Assembly (NCBI GenBank): GCA_965204865.1
Contig: OZ242027.1
Coordinates: forward strand, 935,550 to 999,549
Direction: 5' to 3'
Length of the DNA: 64,000 bases
Source: Dehalococcoidia bacterium
GTDB taxonomy: Bacteria > Chloroflexota > Dehalococcoidia > Lucifugimonadales > UBA3495
The notes beneath the pieces were generated by a model. The model had not been told where the DNA came from, ran no database searches, and saw only the letters and a program-made list of their open reading frames with translations. Below are positions 11,658 to 59,937 of the stretch, piece by piece. Both the position numbers and the translations under genes were made by a program. The stretch's first letter is position 1. Each line of letters starts with the position of its first letter.

Positions 11658-12872
11658 CTACAACTCCACCAGTTCGTAGGACAGGGTGTTGAAATTCTCG
11701 TGGCCGGTTTCGGTTATGAGGATCATGTCCTCAATCTGGTAGGAGCCTAGGCTGGCGGAATAGTAGGGCGTTTCCAGGCAGAGCAGCATCCCTGGCTGGA
11801 GCTCGCTGTGCTCGGTGGCGCTGATAAAGGGCGGCTCCTCAACGAAAGTGTCCAGTCCAATGGAATGCCCGTAATGGCCGCGGCTGTATCCGGGGAATCC
11901 GCGGGCTTGCATGATTTCGTCCGCTACACGGTATACCGCCGAAATGGGCGTTCCCGGGCGTATCAGCTCACGGGCGGCGGCGTGGGCTTCGGCCAGCGCG
12001 TCGTGTACCCGGCGCTGCTCGCCGGAGGCGCGTCCGAAGGAGAAAGTGCGCCCGCAGTCGCTGTAAAAGCCGCCGACGGCAACGCCGCAGTCGAACTTTA
12101 TCAGGTCGCCGGAGCCCAGCCCGCTTCTGTCGCCGAAACTGCTGCCGGTCCCGGCGCTGATGAAACCGTAGGCCGACTGGAACTCCCCTAGCGACGGGTC
12201 GGCAATGGCCGCTTCCAGTGCCCCCGCCTGGTACTGATACTTGATGTCCTGTGCGCTCTGGCCTTCCCGCGCCTCGTTGATGGCCCGCCGCAGGCCAGCC
12301 TCAAATAGCCTTGCCGCGTTGCGGTGCATCTCGATTTCCTGCGGATGCTTGATGGCCCGCAGGCCGTAGAGCATTCCGGTCACATCCACAAACTGGCATT
12401 CGGGATTGTTCTGTTGCAGACGGAACAGGAAATCGGCGTAGACATAACGCAGGTCTATGCCCACGGTTGCGGCGGACAACCCCCGTTCTTCCAGCATCGA
12501 GGTAAGCGTTTCGTCCAACTCGTCCGGGTTCCACTGGGGCGGACGGGAGATGCGCGCGTCGCCGCCCGAAGGCCCGGTGATGACGTCCAGGTCGCGGTTC
12601 TCCACCCACATCTGGTAGGTGCGAATATCCTCGATCGAGGTTACTGCTCTGGCGGCCGGGGCCGCGAAATCGCTGGTCATAAGCGCTGCGGGCAGGGACG
12701 GATCGGCGGGAATCAGGGCCATGTCCGTGCCCATCAGGCGGAAAGACAGGTTAACCACCGGGCTGAAGAAGCCGGTGGTATAGAAGATGTTGGCTGGCGT
12801 GGTGACCAGGCAGGCGTCGATTTCCAGGCGCTGCAACTCTTCCTGTACCCGGCGGCGGGCGTCGTCGAACAT
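11658..12872 (-). CDS. M24-family metallopeptidase (Xaa-Pro peptidase/creatinase-like)
   Basis: Creatinase-type N-domain (IDACLVTTPANIFYTTGF) and a pita-bread C-domain (HYGHSIGLDTFVEEPPF...YQIEDMILIT). Start set at ATG 12872 (MFDDARRR); the track ORF extends further upstream. Confidence 0.8.
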   Translation of the reverse strand: MFDDARRRVQEELQRLEIDACLVTTPANIFYTTGFFSPVVNLSFRLMGTDMALIPADPSLPAALMTSDFAAPAARAVTSIEDIRTYQMWVENRDLDVITGPSGGDARISRPPQWNPDELDETLTSMLEERGLSAATVGIDLRYVYADFLFRLQQNNPECQFVDVTGMLYGLRAIKHPQEIEMHRNAARLFEAGLRRAINEAREGQSAQDIKYQYQAGALEAAIADPSLGEFQSAYGFISAGTGSSFGDRSGLGSGDLIKFDCGVAVGGFYSDCGRTFSFGRASGEQRRVHDALAEAHAAARELIRPGTPISAVYRVADEIMQARGFPGYSRGHYGHSIGLDTFVEEPPFISATEHSELQPGMLLCLETPYYSASLGSYQIEDMILITETGHENFNTLSYELVEL

Positions 12873-13042
12873 GAAATAGACCTCCAGTTGTGCCAGCCCA
12901 ATTCTACACGCCGTTGCAAACCGGCGCACCAGCATCCCAGGTCCCTTTGGTTTCCGGTTCCCGTTCCTATATGCCGTGGACAAAGAATACCTGCGGGATT
13001 AGTATTTCCCCATCAAGCTAGGGTGGCTCGGAGACAGGGAAT

Positions 13043-14341
13043 ATGGATCTGTTCAGGCACAAGGTCTTCTATGGCTGGTGGGTCACCATTGGCTGCTCCC
13101 TGGTTGTGTTCGGCGTGGCTGGCGGTCAGTTTTCTTTTGGCGTCTTTATGAGGCCCATGACGGAGGAGTTTGACTGGAGCCGGGGAACCCTGTCGGCGGC
13201 TTTTGGAGTCACTTACCTGATATCCGGCCTGCTGCGTCCCTTGGCCGGCTATCTTGCCGACCGCTACAGCCCCAAGTGGGTGGCCCTGGCAGGGGTGCTG
13301 ATCATGGGCTGGATGCTGGCCCTGATTTCTGCTGTCCAGTCGCTCTGGCAACTGTATGTGCTGTTTGCCATTATGAGCTTTGGCGTGACCCTGGGAACCG
13401 GGCCGATCCTTACCAAGATAGTCAGCCAGTGGTTCCTGGCAAGACGCGGGCTGACCTTGGGACTGGTAAGTGGAGCAGGTTCCTTCGGCGCCATGATCCT
13501 GGTGCCGGCCACGTCCGCATTCCTGGTGCTGCTTTCCTGGCGGGAGGCGTATCTCTTTCTTGCGATACTCCTGTTGTTGGTGATTCTGCCCGTGGGGGTA
13601 TTGCTGATTCGGGACCGTCCCGAGGACAAAGGGCTTGAACCTTACCGCGCCGATGACCAATCAGCGGGCCCCGGCAGCCGTCGGGGGGGAGACGTAAACT
13701 TCTCCTTTATGGAGGCAATCCGTACCCCGATGTTCCAGAAGCTGACTTTTGGGTACTTCGTTTGAGGGTACTCGATGAGCTTCGTGAATGCTCATTTTGT
13801 CACCTACGCTCAGGACCTTGGCTATTCCCCGCTTACTGCGGCTTTCATGTTCAGCATCATCGGGGCTACGGCCATAATCGGAGCTCTGTGGCTGGGGCAT
13901 TTTTCCGATAAGTACGGCCGCCGCGTTTGGCTGGCGATTTCCTATCAACTACGGGCGTTGGGCTTCGTCGTGGTTCTCCTCTCCATGGGAATCCCCTTCC
14001 TCGGCGTACCGTCGCTGGGCATAGTGGCCCTGGTAGCAGGGGTGTTGCTGGTGGGACTTTCGTGGAACGCGGTGGTGGGGATAACCGCCGCCTACACTGC
14101 CGATGGGTTCGGCACCGCCCACATGGGGAAAATATACGGAACCATGTTCGCCGTTATGCCCATAGGATCGGGTCTGGGATCCTTCCTCGGCGGCTACCTG
14201 TTCGACATTCGCAGCACATACGACTTGGCCATCTGGTCCAACATTGCCCTGCTGATCGCCTCCGCCCTGCTGGTGCTTTCCATTGGCGGCAAGAGGCCGC
14301 AGCCGCTGGGCGGGCCGGCCACCGCCGCCGGGGGCGACTAA
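13043..14341 (+). CDS. MFS transporter interrupted by one in-frame TGA (13763-13765)
   Basis: Track ORFs 13043..13765 and 13775..14341 are in the same frame, separated only by TGA plus 3 codons. Read-through gives one contiguous multi-TM MFS protein (FYGWWV...GYLADRY...GHFSDKYGRR). Confidence 0.7.
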
Positions 14342-14366
14342 CCCCGCCTTCCATCAGCGAAATGGT

Positions 14367-14398
14367 AAAGGCCCCGGCACTGAAAGCCGGGGCCTTTT
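14367..14398. terminator. Bidirectional rho-independent terminator between the convergent MFS and TRAP-SBP1 genes
   Basis: AAAGGCCCCGGC-loop-GCCGGGGCCTTTT. A/T runs on both sides. Confidence 0.6.
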
Positions 14399-14414
14399 CG
14401 CGGGCTTGGAACTT

Positions 14415-14450
14415 CACCCTCACCCGGCCCTCTCCCTCGAAGGAGAGGGA
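14415..14450 (+). repeat. REP-A copy 2 (variant)
   Basis: CACCCTCACCCGGCCCTCTCCCTCGAAGGAGAGGGA, between the terminator and the TRAP-SBP1 stop. Confidence 0.7.
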
Positions 14451-14464
14451 TGATGTAAACGGCG

Positions 14465-15937
14465 CTATTCGGTTATTGGCACGGCCTCAGTCGAGCCGTC
14501 GGAATTGATGCGCAGGCCGACGATGTGGGCCACCTTCTCATTGAACAGTTGGATGATGTCGGCGTCGCCACCGCCCACGCGGTTGACGAAGCCGGGTATG
14601 ACGTGCTCCATCACGGCGACGTTCTTCATGTGGGTCATCAGCTCTTCGTTGAAGGGCTGGAAGGTCAGCCCTTCCGCGACGTTCCGGTCAACCCAGACTT
14701 CGTTCCAGGCCGGGGTAACCCGCATGGCCTCCAGTTCGTGCCTGGCCCCTTCTTCCAGGAGAATCTGCTGGATGTCGGGGGGCAAGCCGTCCCAGACCTG
14801 CTTGTTGATAATGGCATTGGTCAGCAGCTGGCTGGACAGCGGCCCCACCATATAGTCGGTGACCTCATACCAGCGCTGGGCGTGGGCGGCGAAAGCGACA
14901 GTGACGCCGCAGTCCAGAATGCCGCGCTCCAGGGCAGTGTAGACCTCGGCGAAGGCCACGAACTGGGCGTCGGCTCCCATTCCTTCAATCCAGTCGGACA
15001 GCGCCGCGCCGTGGCTGCGGGTCTTCTTGCCCTCGAAGTCCGCAAGGCTGGTGATGCTGTCCTTGCAGAAGAAGAACTGGTCGCCGCCGGAAATCCACTT
15101 GTGGAAAACCACCTGGCCGCCGCCGGTGGCGTCGGAATACATCCGGTCAATGTCGGGCTGGATTGCCTGGGTGACCTTGAACTCGACCTCGTGGTCGGGA
15201 TACAGGCCATAGAGCAGGGCGATTTCAGCATCCGGCAGATGCCCGGCGATGTAGCCGCCGTAGATTTCGGCGAAGGACAAGGTTCCGCTGTCAACCAGGT
15301 CCAGCGAGTCGGGGCCGGCCAGCCCCAGCTCGGGGAAGGAGGTGATGACTATCTTGAACTGCCCGTTGGTGCGTTCTTCTATCTGGGGACGGAAGAAGGC
15401 GTCCACCAGCTCGCAGGTCGCCACCGTCCGGTTGATGCAGGCGTACTGGAGCTCAATGGGTTCTCCGTCGTAGACCAGTTCCGTCGGGTTGGTGAAGTTG
15501 GCCCTTTCCACCAAGTTCTTGTAGTACTCCGAATCGAAAAGGTAACGCTCGCGCTCCAGCGCGGCCAGGTTGACCATGTCGTCGGCGTCGCCCAGGCCCT
15601 CCTCGGGGGCCGGGCCAACCAGTTGCGAGAGGTCTCCGATGTAGAACGCTCCCGGCTTGCCGGCCCGCTCAGCGGCGGCGGCGGCCAGTGCGGGGTCAAC
15701 GTCGGGCATTTCCGGCTCTTCTTCCATAGCCGCTTCCGTGGGTTCTGCCATAGCGGCTTCCGTGGGTGTGGGAACCGCCGGAGCGGGTGTTGCCGTCGGT
15801 ACGGCCGTTGGCGCGACGGTCGGGGCCTGCGTTGCGGCAGGGGCCGCCGTAGGTTCAGGATCTGCGGCGCCTCCACAGGCCAGCGCCAGGGACATGAGCA
15901 AAACCAGAGAAATAGCTGTCAGGAATGTTTTGGTCAT
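14465..15937 (-). CDS. TRAP-type (DctP-family) solute-binding lipoprotein, array copy 1
   Basis: Start ATG 15937 (MTKTFL...LALACGG lipobox) preceded by GGAGG. P/A/T linker. DctP-like core (ERTNGQFKIVITSFPELG...LADFEGKKTRSHG...FAEVYTALERGILDCG...RWYEV). Confidence 0.8.
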   Translation of the reverse strand: MTKTFLTAISLVLLMSLALACGGAADPEPTAAPAATQAPTVAPTAVPTATPAPAVPTPTEAAMAEPTEAAMEEEPEMPDVDPALAAAAAERAGKPGAFYIGDLSQLVGPAPEEGLGDADDMVNLAALERERYLFDSEYYKNLVERANFTNPTELVYDGEPIELQYACINRTVATCELVDAFFRPQIEERTNGQFKIVITSFPELGLAGPDSLDLVDSGTLSFAEIYGGYIAGHLPDAEIALLYGLYPDHEVEFKVTQAIQPDIDRMYSDATGGGQVVFHKWISGGDQFFFCKDSITSLADFEGKKTRSHGAALSDWIEGMGADAQFVAFAEVYTALERGILDCGVTVAFAAHAQRWYEVTDYMVGPLSSQLLTNAIINKQVWDGLPPDIQQILLEEGARHELEAMRVTPAWNEVWVDRNVAEGLTFQPFNEELMTHMKNVAVMEHVIPGFVNRVGGGDADIIQLFNEKVAHIVGLRINSDGSTEAVPITE

Positions 15938-16043
15938 GGAACAACCTCCTGAAACTGTGTGGAATCCCTGCGTATGCGCCGCGCCCGCCGGTTTTGTGGC
16001 AGCCAATCCTTCGGTTCCACTCAGGGCAGGCATAGCCCGGCGG

Positions 16044-16072
16044 AATATACCAAAACGATTCTTACAGCGCAA
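16044..16072 (-). promoter_or_regulatory. Putative promoter of TRAP-SBP copy 1
   Basis: Minus strand TTGCGC-17 nt-TATATT. Same architecture upstream of all five array genes. Confidence 0.5.
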
Positions 16073-16217
16073 GGATAAAATACGAATAGAATGGAAATAA
16101 ATGTAATAATAACTTATAGTAAGTTGATATACTGCTATAATACTACGATATTCGTAGGAATTATTCATAATTATCGCTGAATGATTTTGGGAGAGCAGTT
16201 GCTCGTTTCCCATGTAT

Positions 16218-16248
16218 AAAGGCCCCGGCATTCGACGCCGGGGCCTTT
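16218..16248 (-). terminator. Terminator of TRAP-SBP copy 2
   Basis: AAAGGCCCCGGC-ATTCGAC-GCCGGGGCCTTT. T-run on the minus strand. Confidence 0.6.
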
Positions 16249-16285
16249 CGCTGCTCCGGATGGATGGCCTACGGAGCGCTGAGGG

Positions 16286-17713
16286 TCACTGGATTCGCTC
16301 CCCAGTGCCGTCAGGCAATATCTTGATGCCCACGATCGGGGAAATCTTCTCATTGAACAGGTCAATCATGTTGGCCCTGTTGTTCTCGTCCTGGCGATTA
16401 ACAAAGCCAGGTATGACAAAATCAGTGGCCACCACGTTCCTCTGGTGTTCCAGCAGTTCGGGGGTGAACTCCTGGTAGATCATCCCGGCCTCGATGTTGC
16501 GCGGGATCCAGACCTCGTTCCACGCCGGGGTCACCCGCAGGCCCTCAAGCTCGTGCCGGGCGCCCTCCTCAAGCAGAATCTGCTGGATGTCGGTGGGGAG
16601 GTCCTTCCATACCTGGGGGCTAATCATGACGGTGTTCACCGCCTGGGTTGCAAGGGGGCCGACCATGTATTGGGTCACCTCGTACCAGCGCTGGGCGACC
16701 GACGCGAAAGCCACGGTCACGCCGCAGTCTAGGACGCCACGCTCCAGGGCCGTGTAGACCTCGGCGAAGGCTACGAACTGGGCGGCGGCGCCGAAACCGT
16801 TGATCCAGTCGGAAAGGGCCGAGCCATGGCTGCGGACCTTGCGTCCCTCAAAGTCGGCCAGTTTTTCTATGGGTTCCTGGCAGAAGAAGAACTGGTCGGC
16901 GCCGGATATCCACATATGGGTGATAACCTTGCCCCCTTCGCTGTTCTCCTCGAACAGGCTGTCGACCAACGGCCCTATGGCTTCCTGGACTTTGAGATAG
17001 TGTTCATGGTTTTCGTACACGCCGAACAGGATTTGCAGCTCGGCCTCGGGCATGGCTCCTGAGACGTAACTGCTGGAAATCTCGGCAAAGGACAGGGCGC
17101 CGTTGGCCAGCAGGTTCAGGGAGTCCGGCCCGGCAATGCCCAGCTCCGGGAACGAGGTGATTTCGATCAGCACCTTGCCGTTGGTGCGCTCCTCCACCTG
17201 TTTTCTGAAGAAGTGGTCAAACAGCTCGCAGGGAGCAACGGTGCGGTTGATGCAGGCGAACTGGATTTCTATGGGCTCGCCGTCGTAGGTCATCTCGGTG
17301 GGGTTGGTGAAGTTGGCCTTGTCCACCAGGTCCCTGTAGTACTGGAGTTCGAAGATATACTTTTCACGTTCCAGGCCGGCTAGGTTGACCATATTATTTT
17401 CGTCGCCCAGGTTTTCGCCGGGCGCCGGGCCCACCAACTGATTGAGGTCTCCGATGTAGAACGCGCCGGGCCCGCCGGCCCGCTCGGCGGCGGCCGCGGC
17501 CAGGGCCGGGTCAACGTCGGACATCGCCGAGTCCTCTTCCTCCATCGCAGCCTCGGTGGCCGTGGGGGGAGGCGCGGGCGTGTTCGTTGGCGCGGCCGTC
17601 AGGGCCGCGGTCGCGGGCGCCGCCGTAGGCTCAGGTTCTGCGGCGCCTCCGCAGGCCAGCATCAGGGCCATCAACAGGATCAATGTTCCAACTGTCAGGA
17701 AAGCCTTAATCAT
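16286..17713 (-). CDS. TRAP-type (DctP-family) solute-binding lipoprotein, array copy 2
   Basis: Start ATG 17713 (MIKAFL...LMLACGG). Same architecture as copy 1 and closely similar to it. Confidence 0.8.
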   Translation of the reverse strand: MIKAFLTVGTLILLMALMLACGGAAEPEPTAAPATAALTAAPTNTPAPPPTATEAAMEEEDSAMSDVDPALAAAAAERAGGPGAFYIGDLNQLVGPAPGENLGDENNMVNLAGLEREKYIFELQYYRDLVDKANFTNPTEMTYDGEPIEIQFACINRTVAPCELFDHFFRKQVEERTNGKVLIEITSFPELGIAGPDSLNLLANGALSFAEISSSYVSGAMPEAELQILFGVYENHEHYLKVQEAIGPLVDSLFEENSEGGKVITHMWISGADQFFFCQEPIEKLADFEGRKVRSHGSALSDWINGFGAAAQFVAFAEVYTALERGVLDCGVTVAFASVAQRWYEVTQYMVGPLATQAVNTVMISPQVWKDLPTDIQQILLEEGARHELEGLRVTPAWNEVWIPRNIEAGMIYQEFTPELLEHQRNVVATDFVIPGFVNRQDENNRANMIDLFNEKISPIVGIKILPDGTGERIQ

Positions 17714-17797
17714 CGGACACCCCCCTGAAAATCTGAGTGGTACAGGCCCTGTGCTCCGCGTCCGCTGCGTTGGTGTACGCCCGGCAAAGCCGTGCGA

Positions 17798-17826
17798 AAT
17801 ATAGCAAATGGAAAACCTCAAAGCAA
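17798..17826 (-). promoter_or_regulatory. Putative promoter of TRAP-SBP copy 2
   Basis: Minus strand TTGCTT-17 nt-TATATT. Confidence 0.5.
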
Positions 17827-17972
17827 GAATATGAGACGGAGTACAGTTTTCATAAGTCAATATAAGTCATCCTTTAGTAGAAATACCAGTCATAATTACG
17901 AATTAGAGCTATCATAAGCGTATGATAAGTCCAAAACAATCTCAGAAACCGGCGGCTTCCGTTCATAAATAA

Positions 17973-17998
17973 GGGCCCCGGCACAAATGCCGGGGCCC
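17973..17998 (-). terminator. Terminator of TRAP-SBP copy 3
   Basis: GGGCCCCGGC-ACAAAT-GCCGGGGCCC, followed on the minus strand by TTATTTAT. Confidence 0.6.
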
Positions 17999-18035
17999 TC
18001 GTTGTGAGGTTTGGTTACATCAATTGACGACTGTG

Positions 18036-19493
18036 CTACTGGGTAATCGGAACCCGCTCCGTGGTGCCGTCGGGCAGAACTTTCAGGCCCACGATGGGAG
18101 CGATTTTCTCGTTGAACAGGGCAATGATGTTGTCCCGGTTGTCCTCGTCCTGTCGGCTGATGAACCCGGGCACCACGTGCTGGGTGGCTACCACGTTTCT
18201 CATGTGGTCCATAAGCGCGTCGGAGAACTCCTGGTATTCCAGGCCAGCGTCAATGTTGCGCTGAATCCATACTTCGTTCCACGCCGGGGTTACGCGGATG
18301 GCCTCCAGCTCGTGGCGCGCACCTTCCTCCTCCAGGATTTTCTGGATGTCTTCGGGCAGGCCGTTCCAAACGTCGGCATTGACAATGACGGTATTGAGCA
18401 GTTGGCTGGACAGCGGCCCGACCATGTAGTTGGTCACTTCGTACCAGCGCTGGGCGTGGGCGGCGAAAGCCACGGTCACGCCGCAGTCCAAGATGCCGCG
18501 CTCCAGGGCTGTGTATACCTCGGCGAAGGCCACGAACTGGGCGTTGGCGCCGAAGCCCTCGATCCAGTCGGAAAGGGCTGAGCCGTGGCTGCGCACCTTC
18601 CGTCCCTCAAAGTCCGCCAGTTCCGTGATGCCTTCCTTGCAGAAGAAGAACTGGTCGCCGCCGGAAACCCACATATGCGAGATCACCTTGCCGCCGTCGG
18701 TGTTTTCCGAGAACAGGCGGTCCAGCTCGGGCCCGATGGCCTGCGTCACCTTGAACTCGACTTCATGGTCAGGGTAGACGCCGTACATGATGGCCAGCTC
18801 GGCTTCCGGCATATGGCCGGAGACGTAGCCGCTGGTGATTTCCGCCCAGGACAGAGTTCCGTTGGTTACCTGCTCGAGGGAGTCCGGGCCGGCGATGCCC
18901 AGCTCCGGGAATGAAGTGATGGGAACCAGCACCTTCCCGTTGGTGCGGGCCTCAACCTGGGGCTTGAAGAAGTTGGCCCAGAGTTCACAGGGGGCCACGG
19001 TGCGGTTGATGCAGGCGAACTGGATTTCGATGGGTTCGCCGTCGTAGGTCATTTCCGTAGGATTGGTGAAGTTGGCCTTATCCACCAAGTCCTTGTAGTA
19101 GTCGGAATCGAAGAGATAGCTCTCCCGCTCCAGCCCGGCCAGGTTGACCATATCGTCGGCGTCGCCCAAGCCCTCGGCCGGGGCCGGACCCACCAGGGAG
19201 CTGAAGTCGCCGTCGCCCAGGTAGAAGGCGCCGGGGCCGCCGGCCCGTGCTTCGGCGGCAGCCAACAGGGCTGGGTCAACATCCGAGTCGGTCATCGCCG
19301 GGGCTTCGGTGGGTTCCTCTTGCATTGCCGCTTCCGTGGGGGTGGGGGCTGCGGTGGGCGCGACAGTTGGGGCCTCTGTTGGAACTGCGGTGGGCGGAGG
19401 TTCCGTGGGAACCGGGGTAGCCGCCTCGCCACAGGCCAGCACAAGGGCCATCAGCAAAATCAGTAGTCCAGCCAGCAGGGATGCCTTTATCAA
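18036..19493 (-). CDS. TRAP-type (DctP-family) solute-binding lipoprotein, array copy 3
   Basis: MIKASLLAG...LVLACGE lipobox, linker and DctP-like core. Closest to copies 1 and 2. Confidence 0.8.
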   Translation of the reverse strand: MIKASLLAGLLILLMALVLACGEAATPVPTEPPPTAVPTEAPTVAPTAAPTPTEAAMQEEPTEAPAMTDSDVDPALLAAAEARAGGPGAFYLGDGDFSSLVGPAPAEGLGDADDMVNLAGLERESYLFDSDYYKDLVDKANFTNPTEMTYDGEPIEIQFACINRTVAPCELWANFFKPQVEARTNGKVLVPITSFPELGIAGPDSLEQVTNGTLSWAEITSGYVSGHMPEAELAIMYGVYPDHEVEFKVTQAIGPELDRLFSENTDGGKVISHMWVSGGDQFFFCKEGITELADFEGRKVRSHGSALSDWIEGFGANAQFVAFAEVYTALERGILDCGVTVAFAAHAQRWYEVTNYMVGPLSSQLLNTVIVNADVWNGLPEDIQKILEEEGARHELEAIRVTPAWNEVWIQRNIDAGLEYQEFSDALMDHMRNVVATQHVVPGFISRQDEDNRDNIIALFNEKIAPIVGLKVLPDGTTERVPITQ

Positions 19494-19543
19494 AACAAAC
19501 TCTCCTTTAACTCCCGATGGATTTCCAGGCCTGCGCCCCGCCG

Positions 19544-19568
19544 CCCATCCTGAGCTTGTCGAAGGACG
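19544..19568 (+). repeat. REP-B copy 3, in the 5' leader of TRAP-SBP3
   Basis: CCATCCTGAGCTTGTCGAAGGACGG, between the putative -10 box and the start codon. Confidence 0.8.
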
Positions 19569-19585
19569 GCCCGCGCAGCCCGGCG

Positions 19586-19614
19586 GAATATAGCAAAATG
19601 GAATCTTCCACGCA
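19586..19614 (-). promoter_or_regulatory. Putative promoter of TRAP-SBP copy 3
   Basis: Minus strand TTGCGT-17 nt-TATATT. Confidence 0.5.
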
Positions 19615-19730
19615 ACCCGGTTTATGCCAGCTATCTTGCGATATTCGACACAATATCAACGAAACAGTAATTTCTTTAGATATGACATATTATCGAAAAG
19701 TTGACCCCGCATAACGCACTTTCGCTGCAA

Positions 19731-19760
19731 AGGAAAAGGCCCCGGCGGGTGGCCGGGGCC
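19731..19760 (-). terminator. Terminator of TRAP-SBP copy 4
   Basis: GGCCCCGGC-GGGTG-GCCGGGGCC with TTTTCCT after it on the minus strand. Confidence 0.55.
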
Positions 19761-19837
19761 CGAGTCTGCAACCCGTCTCTTATACCAATGCCTGGGCCGG
19801 GGGCGGGCCGTCCCCGAACCTGCTGGGATTCGCTGGG

Positions 19838-21271
19838 TTACTCGATGAACGTAAGAGAGCCGTCGCCCTCGATTCGCACCTTGGCCCAGGGAGCGACGAT
19901 GTCGTTCCAGATGGCGATTTCCTCCGGCCCGACGCGAGCTATCCAGTTGGGCAGGACGCGGCCCAGCGCCACTTCCTCATAGACAAAGTCTTTCATCTCG
20001 TCGGACCAAGGGATGAAGGTCATTCCTGCATCGACGTTGACCTTGACGCCGGTCTCGTTCCAGACGGCGGCCAGGCGGAGGTTTTCCAGCTCCATCTTGG
20101 CGCCTTCTTCGATGATGATGGCCTGGAGGTCGGCCGGGATGCGGTTCCAGGTGTCCACGTTCATGGTCTCGAATCCCATGGGCATGGAGATGAACGGGCC
20201 GATGAGATTGTCGGTGACCTCGTACCAGCGCTGGCCGTGGCCGGCGTGGGCGCCGGTTACGCCGGCGTCGAGGATGCCGCGCTCCAGGGCGGTGTAGACC
20301 TCGGCGAAGGCCATGAACTGGCCCTCCCCGCCCAGGCCGTTGATGGCGTCGGTCATGGTGGTGCCGTGGCTGCGGGTCTTCAGGCCCTCGAAGTCCTCTT
20401 TCTCCGCGCCGCGCCTGGAGAAGAAGTATTGGTCGTTGCCGCCGTACCAGATATGGTAAATCAGCTTGCCGCCGCCGGTGTTGTCATAGATTCCCTGGTC
20501 CAGCGTTTCCAGCAAGGCGGTGTTGGCTTCGTGTTCCGACGTGAAGTCTTTCCACAGCCCCCAGATGTAGATGATGTCTATCAGGGGCCAGGTGCCGCCG
20601 ACGTAGGCCGGCTGAATCTGGGCGAACTCGATGGTGCCCTGCTCCACCAGTTGCAGCATATCGGAACCGGCCAGGCCCAGCTCGGGGTAGCTGGAGACCT
20701 CGAAGTCCACCTGCCCGTTGGTGCGCTCCTTGACGTTCTCGGCAAAGTAGATGGTCTGGAGAACGCATGGGAGCAGGGCGCGGTTGATGCAGGCGTACTG
20801 GATGTCGAAGTCCTCACCGCTGGAGGTTAGCGGTGTGGGGTCGGTCAGTTTGGCCTTTTCCAGCAGGGAGCGGTAGTAGTCGGTCTCGAAGATGTGCCGG
20901 TTCTTTTCCACAAACTCCAGGGGAACCATGCCGGTGCCGTCCCCCAGGGCTTCCTCCACGCCGCCGGGCGAGGGGCCGACCAGACGGCTGAAATCGCCGT
21001 CGCCGATGTATATCGCGCCCGGCCCGCCGGCCAGTTCTTCGGCCACGGCTTTCAAGGCGGCGTCGGCGTCCATCATTGCCGGCGCCTCGGTGGCTTCCTC
21101 CATCATCGCTTCCGTAGGAGTGGGGGCGGCAGTGGGAGCCGCCGTCGGGGCCGCGGTGGGAGCGGCGGTTGGCGGAGCCTTCGTTGGCACTGGCGTGGCC
21201 GCCTCGCCGCAGGCCAGCGCGAAAGCCATTATCAGGATCAATGCTGCGCCCAACAGTATAGGTTTGACCAT
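19838..21271 (-). CDS. TRAP-type (DctP-family) solute-binding lipoprotein, array copy 4
   Basis: MVKPILLG...FALACGE lipobox. More divergent core (ERTNGQVDFEVSSYPELG...FAEVYTALERGILDAG...RWYEV). Confidence 0.8.
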   Translation of the reverse strand: MVKPILLGAALILIMAFALACGEAATPVPTKAPPTAAPTAAPTAAPTAAPTPTEAMMEEATEAPAMMDADAALKAVAEELAGGPGAIYIGDGDFSRLVGPSPGGVEEALGDGTGMVPLEFVEKNRHIFETDYYRSLLEKAKLTDPTPLTSSGEDFDIQYACINRALLPCVLQTIYFAENVKERTNGQVDFEVSSYPELGLAGSDMLQLVEQGTIEFAQIQPAYVGGTWPLIDIIYIWGLWKDFTSEHEANTALLETLDQGIYDNTGGGKLIYHIWYGGNDQYFFSRRGAEKEDFEGLKTRSHGTTMTDAINGLGGEGQFMAFAEVYTALERGILDAGVTGAHAGHGQRWYEVTDNLIGPFISMPMGFETMNVDTWNRIPADLQAIIIEEGAKMELENLRLAAVWNETGVKVNVDAGMTFIPWSDEMKDFVYEEVALGRVLPNWIARVGPEEIAIWNDIVAPWAKVRIEGDGSLTFIE

Positions 21272-21382
21272 TTAGACACTCTCCTCGTTGATTTCCCTAT
21301 TCATGCTTCCCTCCCCCGCTCTTGTACAAAGGTCGGGCGGTTAACGACTGCGCGGGAACAGGGGCGTCGCACGATTCGGCGG

Positions 21383-21411
21383 AATATACCAAAAGGAAAA
21401 TCAGCACGCAA
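21383..21411 (-). promoter_or_regulatory. Putative promoter of TRAP-SBP copy 4
   Basis: Minus strand TTGCGT-17 nt-TATATT. Confidence 0.5.
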
Positions 21412-21540
21412 GGCATATTGCAATATGTATCTTGAGAGAAAAACCCACTATATGCGGATAGCGACCAATAGTCTACGAATTGATACATATTTTGGAGAAT
21501 ATATGTCTTGATAGTTGAATTTCTGACAATCGGTTTTCTC

Positions 21541-21572
21541 AACAAGCAGGGCCTCGGAATTTTCCGAGGCCC
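21541..21572 (-). terminator. Terminator of TRAP-SBP copy 5
   Basis: GGGCCTCGGA-ATTT-TCCGAGGCCC with a weak T-rich tail (TGCTTGTT) on the minus strand. Confidence 0.5.
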
Positions 21573-21618
21573 CTGCCCGTCTCTTGTACAAGCACCGGCG
21601 ACCTGATTCCCGAGGCAG

Positions 21619-23106
21619 CTAGTTGCCCGCAAGCGATGCTGTGCCGTCGGGATTGATCTTGATACCGGCGGCCGGGCCGACGTTCTTGTTGAACAGTTCG
21701 ACCGCCTCTCGGCCCGCCGGGTTGTCCGGGTAGCCGACCCGGTTCACCCATTGAGGAATCACGTACTTCAGGGCCACTTCCTCAAACAGGAAGGTGCGTA
21801 TCTCCTCGTTGAAGGGTGTGTAAATCATCCCTTCGTCCAGCAGCTTGGGAATGCCCAGGGAAGACAGCACGGGGGTAAACCGGAAGAACTCAAGCTCGTA
21901 TATGGCCCCTTCCTCAATCAGGATCTGCCGGAAGTCCTCGGGTATCTCCTGCCAAACGTCGTAGTTGAAGGTAGCGTTCTCGACGGTAAAGAGGGGTAGG
22001 GGGCCGGCCATGTAGTCGGCCACCTCATACCAGCGCTGGCCGTAGGCTGCGTTGGCGCCGGTGACCCCGCCGTCCAGAATGCCCCGCTCCAAGGCGGTGT
22101 AAACTTCGGTGAAGGCCACCCACTGGGCCTCGGAACCCATGCCGTCAATCATGTCCGACAGGGCGCCGCCGAAGCTGCGGACCTTCAACCCCTGAAAGTC
22201 TTCCAATTCCTCGATGGGTTCCTTGCTGAAGAAGAAAATCTCGTTTTCCGGTACGCGCCAGAGCTGGAAGATGGTGATGCCGCCCTCGGTGCGCCGCTCG
22301 ATCAGCTTGTCCAGGTCGGGGATGGAGGCCACTGTGGCGTTGTAGAAGGTCTCATTGTCCGGGTACATGCCCCATAGGTACTTCATGTCCATTGCGGGCA
22401 GGTCGCCTGCGGTGTAGGCCGCCGGGAGTTCCGCGAAGGACAGCGTGCCGTTGGTCAGCAGTTCCAGGATATCCGGCCCGGCGATGCCCAGTTCCGGGTA
22501 GCCGATGATTTCTATCACCAGTTGTCCGTTGGTTCGTTCTTCCACCCTTTCGGCAAACCACTCGGCCAGTTTGCAGTGAGTGAGGGCCCGGTTGATGCAG
22601 GCAAACTGGTAGGACAGTTCCAGTCCGGTTGAAGTGGCCTGAGTCGGGTTGGTCAGGTTGGCCCTTTCAACCATTTCCCGGTAGTAGTCGGAGTCGAAGA
22701 CGTACAGGTAGTCTTCCAGGCCCTCATAGGGAACGCCGTCGTAGTCACCGATGTCGTCCTCGATGGGTTCGGGAACCGGGCCCACCAACTGGTTGAGATC
22801 GCCGACGTAGATGGCTCCTGGCCCGCCGGCCAATCGGGCGGCGACAGCCTTGAGGTCATCATCGCCGGACATCATGGCTGCTTCGGTGGGTTCCGCCTCG
22901 GGAGCTTCCGTAGGAGCTTCGGTGGGCGCCGCCGCGGCGGTTGTTGCGGTGGGCGCGGCCGGGGCGGTTGTCGCCGTGGGCGCTGCTGTTGGCTCTGGGG
23001 CTTCCGTTGGCTCTGGCGTAGCCGCCTCACCGCAGGCGAGAATCACCGCCATCAAGAGGGCCAGCACCCCGGCTAATGCAAGTTTCCTTGACAGTTGAGA
23101 GAGCAT
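21619..23106 (-). CDS. TRAP-type (DctP-family) solute-binding lipoprotein, array copy 5
   Basis: MLSQLSRK...VILACGE lipobox. Divergent core (ERTNGQLVIEIIGYPELG...FTEVYTALERGILDGG...RWYEV). Confidence 0.8.
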   Translation of the reverse strand: MLSQLSRKLALAGVLALLMAVILACGEAATPEPTEAPEPTAAPTATTAPAAPTATTAAAAPTEAPTEAPEAEPTEAAMMSGDDDLKAVAARLAGGPGAIYVGDLNQLVGPVPEPIEDDIGDYDGVPYEGLEDYLYVFDSDYYREMVERANLTNPTQATSTGLELSYQFACINRALTHCKLAEWFAERVEERTNGQLVIEIIGYPELGIAGPDILELLTNGTLSFAELPAAYTAGDLPAMDMKYLWGMYPDNETFYNATVASIPDLDKLIERRTEGGITIFQLWRVPENEIFFFSKEPIEELEDFQGLKVRSFGGALSDMIDGMGSEAQWVAFTEVYTALERGILDGGVTGANAAYGQRWYEVADYMAGPLPLFTVENATFNYDVWQEIPEDFRQILIEEGAIYELEFFRFTPVLSSLGIPKLLDEGMIYTPFNEEIRTFLFEEVALKYVIPQWVNRVGYPDNPAGREAVELFNKNVGPAAGIKINPDGTASLAGN

Positions 23107-23174
23107 ATTGACACTCCTGAGATAGTTTTACCCAATCGACGGCGGGATTCTGCACTCCTCGCCGATTGCGCGGC

Positions 23175-23203
23175 AATATAGCAAAGGCAATTTCACCGCG
23201 CAA
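23175..23203 (-). promoter_or_regulatory. Putative promoter of TRAP-SBP copy 5
   Basis: Minus strand TTGCGC-17 nt-TATATT. Confidence 0.5.
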
Positions 23204-23347
23204 CCCTTATTCACGAGCAAATCTTTGTGAAAATAATTACAAATAGACTAAACTAGTACAATAATCAACGAATATCGCAATAGAAATTCCTTTGATGTTC
23301 GATAAACTATTGAGGCAAGGCCGGGAGAAGGACCGAGGGTCGAAAGT

Positions 23348-23950
23348 TCAGCGGGCGGCAAGAGGCGAGGGGCCGGAAAGTCCGCCGCCGGTTATGGCCC
23401 GGTGCAGGGCCACCACCGAGCGGGCCAGCGATTGCAGGTCGGCCACGGCCTGCGGGTCGGCAAGCTGGCCGTCCTGGAAGTGGCGGGATTGCAAGTACAC
23501 CATCCCCGGAACGACATGAGCGCCGAACCAGGCCAGCACGGGACGCAGTTGGGCGTCAATGCTCAGGTAGTGGTGGTCGGTGGCGCCCATGCCGATAAGC
23601 CCGCAGGCTTTTCCTTGCAGCCCCTCAGCCGGCACATGGTCCAGCAGGTTCTTCAGCGCGCCAGTGAAAGAGGCCCGGAAGACGGGGGTGGCGATGAGGT
23701 ACATATCGGCGGCAATCACCCGCTCCACCGCTGTCTGGGTGTCGTCATCGTAGCCGGAAAGGGGCCGCCCGTCGGCGAAAGATATGCGGTGGTCGCCCAG
23801 ATGCAGCGTATCCGCTATCGTTCCCTCTCCCTCTGGGAGAGTGTTAGGGTGAGGGAACCCTTCCAGCCCGGACAGCGCTGCTTGTATCGCCTGATACAGC
23901 CGCCCCGGCCGGGTCACGGTTCCGTGGATGGCGAGCAGGGTTGCGGGCAT
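23348..23950 (-). CDS. NAD(P)H-dependent FMN reductase-like flavoprotein
   Basis: MPATLLAIHGT...IATPVFRASFTGALKNLLDHV matches the FMN_red-type motif. Start ATG 23950. Contains an in-frame REP-A copy (GFPHPNTLPEGEG). Confidence 0.75.
   Translation of the reverse strand: MPATLLAIHGTVTRPGRLYQAIQAALSGLEGFPHPNTLPEGEGTIADTLHLGDHRISFADGRPLSGYDDDTQTAVERVIAADMYLIATPVFRASFTGALKNLLDHVPAEGLQGKACGLIGMGATDHHYLSIDAQLRPVLAWFGAHVVPGMVYLQSRHFQDGQLADPQAVADLQSLARSVVALHRAITGGGLSGPSPLAAR
23821..23855 (-). repeat. REP-A copy 3, inside the FMN reductase CDS
   Basis: TTCCCTCTCCCTCTGGGAGAGTGTTAGGGTGAGGG, translated in-frame as PHPNTLPEGEG. Confidence 0.8.
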
Positions 23951-23990
23951 ACTGCCTCTCCTTGAAACGCCTCTCAATCGCTGGGGACGC

Positions 23991-24025: not shown

Positions 24026-25366
24026 TTAACGGGATGCGCCCGCCTTCCGTGCCGCGGTGTAGCGGTTTTCGGGCTTGGGCAGGCCCAGGTTGCCGCGCAG
24101 GGTTTCGGATTCGTACTCGGTACGGAAGAGGCCGCGCTCCTTCAGGATGGGCAGCACGTGGTCAACAAAGTCGTCAAAGCCTTGGGGCAGCACTGCGCCG
24201 CTGAGCATGAAGCCGTCGGCTGCGCCCGACTCGAACCATTCCTGCATCGTGTCGGCCACCTGTTCCGCCGTTCCGATGAACTCGTGGCGTGGCGTGGTGA
24301 CCTGCTGGGCCATCTCCCTCAGTGTCAGTTCCTTCTCGCGGGCGGTCTTCTTTATGCTGTCGGTGGAGCTTTCCCAGCCGTTGCGTCCGAAGTCGCCCAG
24401 CTCCGGGAAGGGCGCGTCGAGGTTGTATTGGGTGAAGTCCAGGTCGTTGAAGTAGCGGCCCAGGTAGTTGAGGGCCTGGTTGACTTCCACCAGCCCGGCG
24501 ATTTCGAGGTACTTTTCCTCGGCCTCCTCGGCTGTGCGGCCCACGATGGGAGAGCAGCCAGGCAGTATCAGGACTTCGCCGGGGTTGCGACCAGCGGCCG
24601 CGGCACGGCCTTTCACGTCGCTGCTGAACTCCTCGGCGCTGGCCCGGTTGGCCTGGCCGGTGAAGACCGCGTCCGCAATCTTGGCCGCGAAGCCACGACC
24701 GGCCTCCGATGAGCCAGCCTGAATCAGCACCGGCCTTCCCTGCGGTGAGCGGGATATGTTCAGAGGGCCCTGCACCGAGAAAAATTCCCCTTGATGGTTC
24801 AGCCGGTGCATCTTGTCGGGGTCAATGAACTCGCCGCTGGCCCGGTCTCGGATGAAGGCGTCATCTTCCCACGAGTCCCACAGGCCCTTGGCAATCTCGA
24901 TATACTCGGCGGCCATCCGGTAGCGCAGGTCGTGAGCCGGATGCTCCGGTTTATTGTAGTTCAGCGCCGAGCCTTCCAGCGGCGAGGTTACGACGTTCCA
25001 ACCAGCGCGCCCGTTGGAAATGTGGTCAATGGACATAAACTGCCGCGCCACGGTGTAAGGGTCGCTGTAAGTGGTGGACAGGGTGGCCGCCAGGCCGATG
25101 TGGGTGGTGTCCATTGCCAGGGCTGCCAGAAGGGTAAGGGGCTCGAAGCGGTTGAGGAAGTTGGGATGCGACTTTTCGCTGATGTACAGCCCGTCGCCAA
25201 AGAAGGCGAAGTCCAGCTTGGCGTTTTCGGCCTTCCTGGTAAGCCGCCGGTAGTAATCGAGGTTGATGGCGGCGTCCGGCACGGCGGTGGGGTGCCGCCA
25301 CGACGCCATGTTGGAGCCCGTGCCGGCCAGGAAGGTCCCGATGCGCATCATTCGCCGTTCAGCCAT
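24026..25366 (-). CDS. LLM-class monooxygenase, NtaA/SnaA/DszA subfamily
   Basis: 446 aa. [20 protein letters not shown] start and length are typical of the NtaA/DszA group. Directly upstream of the FMN reductase gene. Confidence 0.85.
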
Positions 25367-25433: not shown

Positions 25434-26468
25434 CTAATCTATCAGCCCGCCCAGCAGCTCGAAGGAGCGCAGCCGCTTCTCGAAGCTGTCTATAGCGGTC
25501 ACTGCGATTATCTCATCAGCGCCGTACTTTTGGCGCACTTCCAACAACTGCCGCCGCACCGATTCGGGCGCGCCGTGAACCACGCCCGCCTGACGCACGG
25601 TGATTTGGTAGCCCTCTCCCGACTGTTTCCCGAACTCTTCGCCCGCCTCAACGCTGCCGACGGTAAGGGTGCGCCCGCTATCCAGCGTTATGCGGACGAC
25701 CTGTATCTTGGCGGCGTGTTCCGCTGCTTCCTCGTCGGTGTCGGACACAATGATGGGCAAGGCCAGCATCGTATAAGGCCAACCCACTCTCCCACAGGGA
25801 GAGGGTTGGGGTGAGGGTGTTCTTGCAGCGTCGGAACCGGCCTGGTAGCGGCGCACGGCTTCGGCCATCTCGTCCTCGTCGTTGTTGAGGAACAGTGCGA
25901 AGACGTAGGGCATTGCCAGTTCCGCCGCCATGTCGCCGCTGGAGCGGGTCGTCCCCAGCAGGAACAGGTCGGGCGGCCGCGGCGGCAGGGGACTGGCCTG
26001 CAACCCGTACAGGGGATGCTCCGGCTCCAGTTCGTCGTGCAGGAACCGCCGTAGCTCCCCCAGCTTCTCGGCCAGGTTCATGGCAGGTTCGCCATCCCCG
26101 CGCCGCAGAGCCGCCGTGGAGCGGGGCAGCCCGCCCGGCCCGCGCCCGATGCCCAGGTCAACCCGCCCCGGAGCCAACGACGCCAGCACGTTGAAATTCT
26201 CGGCCACCTTGTAGGGGCTGTAATGCTGCAACATCACTCCGCCGGAGCCGACCCGGATGCGCGAGGTATGGGCCAGCAGGTGCGAGACCAGCACCTCCGG
26301 CGACGACCCCATCACCCGCCCGGAGCCGTGATGCTCCGCTACCCAGAAGCGGTGATAACCCCACTCTTCGGCCTTCTGCGCCAGCTCTATGGTATGGCGC
26401 AGGGCGTCAACAGGGCTGTCCGATTCATGGACCGGGCTTTGATCGAGGATGCTCAGCTTGAGGCTCAT
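25434..26468 (-). CDS. LLM-class flavin-dependent oxidoreductase (group-1 luciferase-family type)
   Basis: [13 protein letters not shown]...[17 protein letters not shown]. Contains an in-frame REP-A-like copy ([14 protein letters not shown]). Confidence 0.8.
25779..25817 (-). repeat. REP-A copy 5 (variant), inside an LLM CDS
   Basis: CCAACCCACTCTCCCACAGGGAGAGGGTTGGGGTGAGGG, translated in-frame as [14 protein letters not shown]. Confidence 0.7.
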
Positions 26469-42656: not shown

Positions 42657-42780
42657 GGGGACATTCGCCATCGCCGGTTTTTGTTGACACCGCATAGGGG
42701 GTAATCTATTCTAAGTCATTCTGCGAAGGGAGCGACGGCCTGCGCGGCCAAGCGCGTCAGGCAACCTCCCAGTGGATGAT

Positions 42781-43707
42781 ATGCAACGTTTCATCATCGT
42801 CCGTTGTTTTTACGCCATCTTAGTGCTGTTCGCGGTATCCATCATCGTCTTTGTGCTGGCGCGGGCTTCCGGCAATCCAATAGACACGATGCTTCCCCTG
42901 GACGCTACGCCGGAGCAGCAGGAGACGTTCAAGGAACTGTGGGGGCTGAACAAGTCCTACCCCGAACAGTATTTCGACTTCCTCGCCAACGCATTCCAGG
43001 GTGACTTTGGCGATTCGGTCAAGTGGGCGGACCGTACGGCCATGGGGCTGGTTATCGAGCGTTTCCCGCTCACTCTGAAGCTGGGCGCGGTGGCTATCGG
43101 CATCAGTATGCTTATCGCGGTACCCATCGGGGTGCTGTCGGCGGTCAAGAAAGACACCCCCTTTGACCTGGGCGGCAAGGTCTTCGCCCTCTTGGGGCAG
43201 GCGACGCCGCCCTTCTGGCTCGGCATCATGCTCATCTGGCTGTTTGCGGTGGAGGTTGACTGGTTCCCCACGGGCGGGGATGAAGGCATTGTCTGGATTA
43301 TCCTGCCGGCCATCACCCTGGGCTGGTTCCAGGTAGCGGCCCTGATGCGGCTGGTACGCTCCGCCATGCTGGAGGTGCTGGAAACCGAGTACGTGACCCT
43401 GGCCCGCGTCAAGGGTATCCAGGAATGGAAGGTTATCTGGAAACACTGCCTTAGAAACGCTTCCATACCGCCACTGACGCTGTTCGGCATCCTGGCCGCT
43501 CAGGTGATGACTGGCGCCATCGTGACCGAGACGGTGTTCAGCCTGCCAGGCACCGGGAACCTGGCGATTGAGGCCATTCGGGGCCGGGACTACCCGGTAA
43601 TCCAGGCTGTGGTGGTCCTTTTCGCAGTCATCTACATCGCAATGAACCTGGTCGTGGACATCCTGTACGCATATATTGACCCCCGCATCCGTTACGACCG
43701 GGCGTAG
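42781..43707 (+). CDS. ABC transporter permease (DppB/OppB-like)
   Basis: MQRFIIVR start and DILYAYIDPRIRYD end. Multi-TM. Confidence 0.9.
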   Translation: MQRFIIVRCFYAILVLFAVSIIVFVLARASGNPIDTMLPLDATPEQQETFKELWGLNKSYPEQYFDFLANAFQGDFGDSVKWADRTAMGLVIERFPLTLKLGAVAIGISMLIAVPIGVLSAVKKDTPFDLGGKVFALLGQATPPFWLGIMLIWLFAVEVDWFPTGGDEGIVWIILPAITLGWFQVAALMRLVRSAMLEVLETEYVTLARVKGIQEWKVIWKHCLRNASIPPLTLFGILAAQVMTGAIVTETVFSLPGTGNLAIEAIRGRDYPVIQAVVVLFAVIYIAMNLVVDILYAYIDPRIRYDRA

Positions 43708-43784
43708 TCCTTAATGCCAGTCTGCCAGACGTAGCTGGGACGCCACTCGGTGCAGTTACAGACTCCATGATTGAGTGACAATGT

Positions 43785-59862: not shown

Positions 59863-59865
59863 TCG

Positions 59866-59900
59866 CCCTCACCCTAACCCTCTCCCAGAGGGAGAGGGAA
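59866..59900 (+). repeat. REP-A copy 14
   Basis: CCCTCACCCTAACCCTCTCCCAGAGGGAGAGGGAA, between the two permease genes. Confidence 0.9.
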
Positions 59901-59937
59901 ATTATATTGGCCTTCCCGCGCTTGTATAGATACGGGC

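Follow-up and report, generated by a model that had tools for sequence, protein, structure and literature searches.

We have analysed a 64,000-nt stretch of DNA from a Dehalococcoidia bacterium (hereafter the window, meaning the whole of that stretch), which carries five paralogous genes for binding lipoproteins of the DctP type, the family of binding proteins that serves TRAP (tripartite ATP-independent periplasmic) transporters. The five genes lie head-to-tail on the minus strand at a spacing of 1.75-1.82 kb (Table 1), and we refer to them together as the array. Open reading frames (ORFs) were found at exactly the positions given for them in a preliminary description of this DNA made from the sequence alone; all five are intact, and each is accompanied by elements that resemble a ribosome-binding site and a promoter. 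Copies 1-3 are 64-74% identical to one another and copies 4 and 5 are 43-49% identical to the rest, so that the closeness of the first three and the divergence of the other two, both noted earlier, are confirmed.

Table 1. Position of the array genes, their flanking elements and neighbouring genes in the window, and of TRAP membrane loci in related genomes.
Feature	Position	Strand	Remarks
Copy 5, long-form DctP-type binding lipoprotein	21619-23106	minus	495 aa; first gene of the array
Copy 4, long-form DctP-type binding lipoprotein	19838-21271	minus	477 aa
Copy 3, long-form DctP-type binding lipoprotein	18036-19493	minus	485 aa; TTG start; copy used for modelling
Copy 2, long-form DctP-type binding lipoprotein	16286-17713	minus	475 aa
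Copy 1, long-form DctP-type binding lipoprotein	14465-15937	minus	490 aa; last gene of the array
Promoter-like box, copy 5	23175-23203	minus	TTGCGC-N-TGCTATATT; -35, 17-nt spacer, extended -10
Promoter-like box, copy 4	21383-21411	minus	pattern match, kept in orthologous arrays
Promoter-like box, copy 3	19587-19615	minus	pattern match, kept in orthologous arrays
Promoter-like box, copy 2	17798-17826	minus	pattern match, kept in orthologous arrays
Promoter-like box, copy 1	16044-16072	minus	pattern match, kept in orthologous arrays
AT-rich tract, copy 5	23204-23303	minus	30% GC
AT-rich tracts, other copies	21412-21511, 19616-19715, 17827-17926, 16073-16172		upstream of the respective promoters
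GC-rich hairpin after copy 5	21550-21571	minus	weak U tail
Terminator-like hairpin after copy 4	19738-19760	minus	followed by UUUUCCUUU
Terminator-like hairpin after copy 3	17974-17997	minus	pattern and folding
Terminator-like hairpin after copy 2	16221-16245	minus	pattern and folding
Hairpin between copy 1 and convergent MFS gene	14370-14394	either	T-rich on both sides
MFS transporter gene	13043-14341	plus	convergent with the array; in-frame TGA at 13763-13765
FMN reductase	23348-23977	minus	directly upstream of copy 5
NtaA/DmoA-family FMN monooxygenase	24026-25366	minus	562 bits against a 280-bit cut-off
MsnO8-family LLM oxidoreductase	25434-26468	minus	in the group directly upstream
Opp/Dpp-type ABC permease pairs	539-2375; 42772-44693; 58948-60900		three pairs in the window
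TRAP membrane gene sets with two dctM genes, related loci	L075:460-4292; L085, L072, L086, L048, L061, L081, L059; L118:3823-11689; L120		
Array and dctM-dctP-dctP-dctQ-dctM on OZ220473.1 (2.91 Mb)	2.229-2.251 Mb; 1.664-1.686 Mb		about 0.57 Mb apart
Array and dctM-dctP-dctP-dctQ-dctM on OZ253565.1 (5.00 Mb)	3.947-3.969 Mb; 1.044-1.065 Mb		about 2.9 Mb apart

All five proteins match PF03480 (DctP) at 89-115 bits (E 1e-25 to 1e-33; cut-off 23.4 bits) and NF037995, the NCBIfam TRAP_S1 model, at 61-96 bits (cut-off 50 bits), with copy 5 scoring 98 and 61 bits, respectively. None of the five reaches the 175-bit cut-off of the dctP subfamily model TIGR00787 (62-90 bits), and the array proteins lie outside this narrower model; the assignment to the DctP family nevertheless stands because the broader DctP models are reached. 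The preliminary description was thus right to call the proteins DctP-type TRAP binding lipoproteins, and its reservation that hidden Markov models might place them in a different family of solute-binding proteins (SBPs) holds only in part, for TIGR00787 and not for PF03480 or NF037995.

Each protein is laid out in the same way, with a hydrophobic signal, the sequence L-A-C-G, a linker rich in P, T and A, a conserved module of some 85-90 aa and the DctP core. The hydrophobic N-terminus and the L-A-C-G of the lipobox (A20, C21, G22) are invariant in 38 sequences, and the array proteins appear to be lipoproteins that would be lipidated at this site. An AlphaFold2 model of copy 3 (mean predicted local distance difference test score, pLDDT, 75.5), in which residues 20-69 of the linker are disordered, matches the two-lobe Venus-flytrap fold of solved TRAP binding proteins; a Foldseek search of the PDB returned TeaA, DctP6/7, SiaP, TarP and IseP with a probability of 1.0 and target TM-scores of 0.65-0.73. 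A profile built from 38 family members reached 98 solved TRAP SBPs, with alignments that start only at about residue 150-170. The arginine of a KVRSHG motif (R301 in copy 3) is invariant in 38 of 38 family sequences and aligns with the arginine of KLRVPG in 4mnp, a SiaP-type protein, as well as with that of RIRT or KVRV in other TRAP SBPs. We take the residue in 4mnp to be R147 of SiaP, the selectivity arginine for the carboxylate of the ligand, and structures of R147 mutants were among the Foldseek matches in the PDB. An equivalent of the carboxylate-binding arginine, which the preliminary description had proposed to look for, is therefore present. Because the conserved arginine aligns with the selectivity arginine of SiaP-type proteins, the ligand is most likely an organic anion; since the nearest solved structures are only about 20% identical to the array proteins, nothing more specific can be said of it.

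The array proteins are longer than their family would predict. A typical TRAP binding protein is 300-350 aa long and consists solely of two alpha/beta domains and a hinge (PMC12344293); the array proteins, at 475-495 aa, depart from this architecture by the conserved N-terminal module (N-module), which is covered by no Pfam or NCBIfam model. When predicted alone by AlphaFold2 the N-module has a pLDDT of 45, whereas inside the full protein it exceeds 90, which argues that it does not form an autonomous domain but packs onto the core as an extension; in these models it looks dependent on the DctP core. A profile of the N-module searched against 1.84 billion representative proteins found only 175 clusters, and every one of those whose domains were examined also has a DctP core. 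By this measure the protein is a rare, lineage-restricted long form of DctP, limited to Dehalococcoidia. The unit of N-module and DctP core also occurs inside large multidomain proteins (P0153, P0176, P0142, P0152, P0151 and P0155), in which it follows Trypsin_2 and PPC domains (with or without leucine-rich repeats, LRR), follows Big_12 and PPC domains, or precedes LRR or ankyrin repeats; one of these proteins, P0153, is encoded by a single 1341-codon gene on a long-read contig (L122:1966-5991). Tandem double units are found in P0121 and P0117. We also note that at metagenome loci L099-L117 the match to the window proteins begins only at about residue 150, at 44-46% identity; these proteins seem to have no N-module or a different N-terminus, and no dctQ or dctM gene was found near them.

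Each array gene appears to form its own cassette of promoter, gene and terminator, as the preliminary description had proposed, and the five promoter-like boxes, five AT-rich tracts and five hairpins that this entails were all found. The promoter-like box, TTGC-N16-TGSTATATT with at most one mismatch, is built of a -35 element, a 17-nt spacer and an extended -10 element, and has exactly five matches in the 64 kb, one per copy, in each case upstream of the gene and on its strand, against a chance expectation from shuffled sequences of 0.04. In 30 related loci most copies have retained the box in their upstream region, which argues that it is functional. A generic sigma-70 scan missed this box because its -35 element is TTGCG, and a generic terminator scan recovered only one of the five hairpins, so that specific patterns were needed for both. 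The start codons lie 68-111 nt from the end of the -10 box and each is preceded by a GGAG-type ribosome-binding site; when the leaders and intergenic regions were scanned with Rfam, no family was matched and only a sub-threshold chance hit appeared. Upstream of each -35 element lie 100 nt with a GC content of 23-38%, compared with 62% for the window, and nowhere else in the window does the GC content of 100 nt fall as low as in these five tracts. Near-consensus promoters with AT-rich tracts before them would be expected to give high expression.

The hairpin, GGCC[CT]CGG...CCG[AG]GGCC, likewise occurs exactly five times in the window, each time shortly 3' of the stop codon of one copy, and four of the five hairpin regions fold far better than shuffled sequences. 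The hairpin that follows copy 1 resembles a bidirectional terminator and may close both copy 1 and the convergent gene for a transporter of the major facilitator superfamily (MFS). A second perfect GC-rich hairpin (CCCTCTCC-TTCG-GGAGAGGG, minus strand, 14424-14448) is situated in the gap that separates the copy 1 stop codon from this shared terminator hairpin. Between the gene for flavin mononucleotide (FMN) reductase upstream and copy 5 there is no hairpin, and read-through from upstream is therefore possible for the first cassette.

The array is not confined to this genome. A genome scan found at least 35 loci in metagenome-assembled genomes labelled Dehalococcoidia or Chloroflexi, and some 30 related loci carry the same ordered array, namely orthologues of copies 5, 4 and 3 and optionally of copies 2 and 1, the last two having orthologues in only some of the arrays. 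Related loci hold 3-7 copies each, and many are on complete chromosomes of 2.9-5.0 Mb. In a neighbour-joining tree each window copy groups with its orthologues elsewhere and not with its neighbours in the array; the clade of copies 1-3 is younger, and the lineages of copies 4 and 5 are older. This pairing of copies with orthologues bears out the stepwise duplication and subsequent divergence suggested earlier. In the closest complete relative (L001), which has seven copies in all, two extra and more distant copies stand at the head of the array. The copy 1 orthologue of the same genome (L001:11790-13247) is split between an ORF of 350 aa (11790-12842) and one of 128 aa (12861-13247), a sign of a frameshift or of decay in one copy.

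Mis-assembly of tandem repeats does occur, and that split copy might be taken as a sign that an assembly error, or the decay of duplicates, lies behind the array. The copies in the window, however, differ at 26-57% of their residues, their five ORFs are intact with conserved elements resembling ribosome-binding sites and promoters, and in about 30 genomes, complete long-read chromosomes among them, each has intact orthologues with identities of 69-96% (69-89% for copy 5 in related arrays, and 96% for copy 4 in L001). Given this divergence, the conserved orthologous array and the tree, we reject the explanation, whose probability we regard as negligible; collapsed or expanded repeats, against which the preliminary description had cautioned, are not what is seen here.

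The preliminary description had also stated that no DctQ or DctM occurs anywhere in the 64 kb, and on this point a survey of ORFs with multiple transmembrane segments and tblastn searches agree. We found no gene for either membrane subunit in the window, where the ORFs with multiple transmembrane segments all encode permeases of the ATP-binding cassette (ABC) type (six) or MFS proteins. Searches with E. coli YiaM and YiaN gave only chance matches in the window and 37 related loci (809 kb in total), and so did searches with lineage-matched DctM1, DctQ and DctM2 in the window and 36 related loci. A YiaM match in one related locus (L011, E 0.023) was dismissed, as there is no ORF with multiple transmembrane segments there and no match to the lineage-matched DctQ.

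One way to account for receptors with no membrane partner within 64 kb is that they do not serve transport at all but are surface ligand binders for sensing, scavenging, solute retention or interaction with a host. Such a role would also suit genes that each have their own promoter rather than a place in a transporter operon, the occurrence of the module and DctP core inside large proteins of surface type with trypsin-like, PPC, Big_12, LRR or ankyrin parts, and the many orphan family members on long contigs. It is harder to reconcile with the invariance of the selectivity arginine and with a standard TRAP binding-protein fold, and among the ORFs with multiple transmembrane segments that were examined, no sensor kinase or chemoreceptor lies beside the arrays. 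Members of the same family are, moreover, operonic with dctM and dctQ in relatives, as described below, and we consider a non-transport role unlikely.

With the five paralogues as queries, marine metagenome contigs yielded 79 loci, and at 12 of these TRAP membrane genes lie beside a long-form dctP gene. In free-living relatives the genes recur in the order dctM, dctQ, dctM and dctP (M-Q-M-P), the first three encoding proteins of about 499, 211 and 497 aa; Pfam detects a complete DctM domain in each of the two large proteins and DctQ in the small protein. The two DctM paralogues are 53% identical to each other and, at about 500-560 aa, flank a single DctQ; E. coli YiaN is about 425 aa long. To our knowledge, no TRAP system in which there are two large subunits has been described. 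Two long-form proteins, L061_Pa and L048_Pc, which are 58-67% identical to copies 1-3 and form their sister clade in the neighbour-joining tree, are encoded 1.6-6 kb from a dctM-dctQ-dctM cluster. For some members of the subfamily in free-living relatives, then, dctQ and dctM adjoin dctP; they adjoin it neither in the window nor at the 37 related array loci.

We present evidence that related genomes with the array carry such membrane genes elsewhere. With one DctM from the free-living loci as query, orthologues (561-587 aa) were recovered from chromosomes that bear the array as well, and on two of these, OZ220473.1 and OZ253565.1, the membrane genes form a locus of the order dctM-dctP-dctP-dctQ-dctM (M-P-P-Q-M) at a considerable distance from the array (Table 1). 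Both dctP genes of this distant locus encode the long form, N-module included. Identity to the window copies is 44-51% for the second gene, P2, which matches the closeness of copies 4 and 5 to copies 1-3, and 33-40% for the first, P1. At least 10 further array-bearing contigs, paired by their length, have a DctM2 orthologue, and in total dctQ or dctM genes are present on the same contig as the array in at least 12 array-bearing contigs, all from relatives. Compared with the free-living form (L075:2799-4292), the DctM2 of the array-bearing lineage (L118:10001-11689) has about 64 additional residues inserted after position 288; the two proteins are 77% identical before this insertion and 71% after it. 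The preliminary description had presented the array as stand-alone, with no membrane partner; this is correct for the window and, to judge from the distant loci of relatives, very probably incorrect for the genome, which presumably has a dctM/dctQ locus of its own. Of the two alternatives it had offered, the linkage to dctM-dctQ-dctM in relatives favours a distant shared permease over a role outside TRAP transport.

We therefore favour a reading in which several paralogous, separately transcribed TRAP binding lipoproteins share one distant permease, and we would put the probability of this at roughly two in three. Each array gene would be transcribed alone from a promoter with a -35 and an extended -10 element preceded by an AT-rich tract, and each transcript would stop at its own hairpin. 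The protein would be exported, lipidated at the cysteine of L-A-C-G and held at the surface by its flexible P/T/A linker, with the N-module of about 90 aa packed onto the two-lobe DctP core. There the conserved arginine would capture an anionic organic solute, a carboxylate or possibly a sulfonate, which would then be handed to the shared distant dctM1-dctQ-dctM2 TRAP unit, a unit that has two long-form dctP genes of its own. The array might in this way broaden the substrate range or the capacity of one permease, and would probably supply the oxidative catabolic genes that surround it, such as those for FMN-dependent monooxygenases and hydrolases.

Several observations weigh against this reading. 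The TRAP membrane locus is known from relatives, and not from the genome of the window or from its closest complete relative, OZ242013.1, and many members of the long-form family, including some in free-living relatives, stand as orphans on long contigs. That the array proteins dock on the distant permease, rather than on some other partner, is itself presumed. At equal stringency the TRAP locus has no match to the promoter-like box of the array, so that co-regulation of the two is not supported; the dctQ promoter of the TRAP locus only resembles the box (TTGCG...TGTGTAnnAT). Fusions of the module and DctP core with trypsin-like, PPC, Big_12, LRR and ankyrin parts would be odd for a pure transporter component. 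To the shortfall against TIGR00787 may be added that the confidence of the AlphaFold2 model is low at residues 303-332, beside the conserved arginine, and that the DG-EN motif around N187 of SiaP corresponds to D-C-G-V-T in the array proteins.

The arrangement of a long-form receptor with two DctM proteins also admits a more far-reaching interpretation. Long-form DctPs and the dctM1-dctQ-dctM2 unit might constitute a distinct TRAP architecture, with the N-module as an adaptor that docks many tethered receptors on a two-DctM unit, namely those of the array, those encoded in the distant locus and even those fused to protease, LRR or ankyrin parts. We regard this as doubtful.

The gene that converges on the array also has to be considered. 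The MFS gene reads as two ORFs (240 and 188 aa) separated by an in-frame TGA in the context FGYFV-TGA-GYSMSFVNAHF, and the in-frame stop is TGA in 27 of 27 related loci. The 9 nt after the TGA, up to the next ATG, show synonymous changes only (GGN TAC TCR), and a conserved hairpin with a 9-nt loop, ATGAGC-TTCGTGAAT-GCTCAT, begins 10 nt downstream of the TGA; a full-length MFS paralogue (L025:74-1360) has a cysteine in the TGA column. Together the conserved TGA, the synonymous flank, the downstream hairpin and the cysteine paralogue make up the classic signature of selenocysteine, and the gene probably encodes a selenocysteine-containing transporter and is not a pseudogene or a split gene. No tRNA gene was found in the window.

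It is conceivable that this neighbour, and not a TRAP permease, is the partner of the array proteins, which would then be part of a binding-protein-dependent MFS system. The window and about 27 related loci all have the MFS gene immediately next to the array, and further MFS genes are found in the vicinity of more remote family members (L029, L031, L017 and L025). There is also a precedent: a TRAP-family (TAXI) binding protein that carries an additional N-terminal domain works with GltS and not with a TRAP membrane protein (PMC12344293). The MFS gene is, however, convergent with the array and separated from it by the bidirectional-looking terminator, and the adjacency does not count as independent evidence because it is limited to a single clade of close, syntenic relatives. 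MFS genes in the neighbourhood of distant family members share only 16-32% identity with the one beside the array, and MFS genes are in any case abundant in SAR202, with 129 in five single amplified genomes (PMC5395668). Together with the direct linkage of long-form dctP to dctM-dctQ-dctM in free-living relatives, these points make an MFS partner very unlikely in our estimation; that the array proteins might serve the adjacent selenocysteine-containing transporter in particular is a bolder variant of the far-reaching interpretation given above.

For receptors that share a distant TRAP permease there are several systems with which to compare the array. DctPQM of Rhodobacter capsulatus and SiaPQM of Haemophilus influenzae belong to the same Pfam and NCBIfam family and have the same two-lobe fold and acid-binding arginine, and relatives of the array likewise have DctQ and DctM genes beside dctP. 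In contrast to those systems, the array proteins are lipoproteins of 475-495 aa with an additional module of about 90 aa, where the usual form is soluble and 300-350 aa long (PMC12344293), the five array genes are detached from the membrane genes and individually transcribed, and the associated membrane set consists of two DctM paralogues (53% identical) around one DctQ. Orphan TRAP binding proteins are known, but they are described as exceptions, the genes being nearly always operonic with membrane genes (PMC12344293).

Sharing of a permease among many binding proteins has been presumed before for the Bug/TctC proteins of Bordetella, members of the TTT (tripartite tricarboxylate transporter) family, for which there are many binding-protein genes and few membrane genes (PMC5812351). 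As in the array, these are many paralogues, mostly without a nearby membrane partner (PMC5812351), but the binding-protein family and the membrane proteins (TctA/B) are unrelated to those considered here, and the Bug genes, about 80 in number, are scattered; here the genes number 5-9, and those of the array form conserved, ordered tandem cassettes. BP0403 of Bordetella pertussis, which works with GltS, resembles the array proteins in being a binder of about 500 aa from the TRAP superfamily with an extra N-terminal domain and no adjoining TRAP membrane gene (PMC12344293). It differs in that it is of the TAXI type and dimerises, its extra part is an autonomous globular domain with a long helix, and its partner gene gltS is operonic; the module of the array proteins is short and is not predicted to fold alone, and their relatives are linked to DctM and DctQ. 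Paralogous binding proteins of different specificity that use one membrane unit are also familiar from HisJ and ArgT/LAO, which share HisQMP; this is an ATP-driven ABC system, and the binding-protein genes are usually near the permease operon. On TRAP counts in SAR202 and sponge Chloroflexi, the literature offered only a brief mention, of 14 TRAP proteins in five single amplified genomes.

The window as a whole is a dense catabolic and transport island. Directly upstream of the array lies a group of genes for an oxidoreductase of the luciferase-like monooxygenase (LLM) class, an FMN monooxygenase and an FMN reductase (Table 1), and the same order of MsnO8-like, NtaA/DmoA-like and FMN reductase genes is present in L001. 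Besides these and the permease pairs of the Opp/Dpp type, the window holds SBP_bac_5 lipoproteins, luciferase-like monooxygenases, Amidohydro_2 proteins, epoxide and alpha/beta hydrolases and GMC oxidoreductases. This catabolic and transport gene content agrees with descriptions of SAR202 genomes (PMC5395668). Because the window, like SAR202 genomes, is rich in oxidative catabolic genes, we suggest that the receptors may collect acidic substrates for local oxidative metabolism.

Three features of this system appear to be new: the elongated form of DctP, the membrane gene set with two DctM proteins, and a conserved, ordered array of autonomous cassettes. The array departs from the norm in its elongated receptor, in its multiplied and separately transcribed genes away from the permease, and in its association with two DctMs and one DctQ. 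The puzzle of the missing partner, for its part, largely dissolves once related genomes are considered, and the locus offers a clean test case for the number of receptors that one TRAP permease can serve. Without their anchors the array proteins should be soluble, which would make ligand screening and crystallography straightforward. If the more far-reaching interpretation of a distinct architecture were true, bacteria related to SAR202 would possess a multi-receptor, multi-channel uptake hub for oxidised organic acids. SAR202-like Dehalococcoidia are thought to oxidise recalcitrant dissolved organic matter, and the ligands of the five receptors would show which compounds these cells gather.

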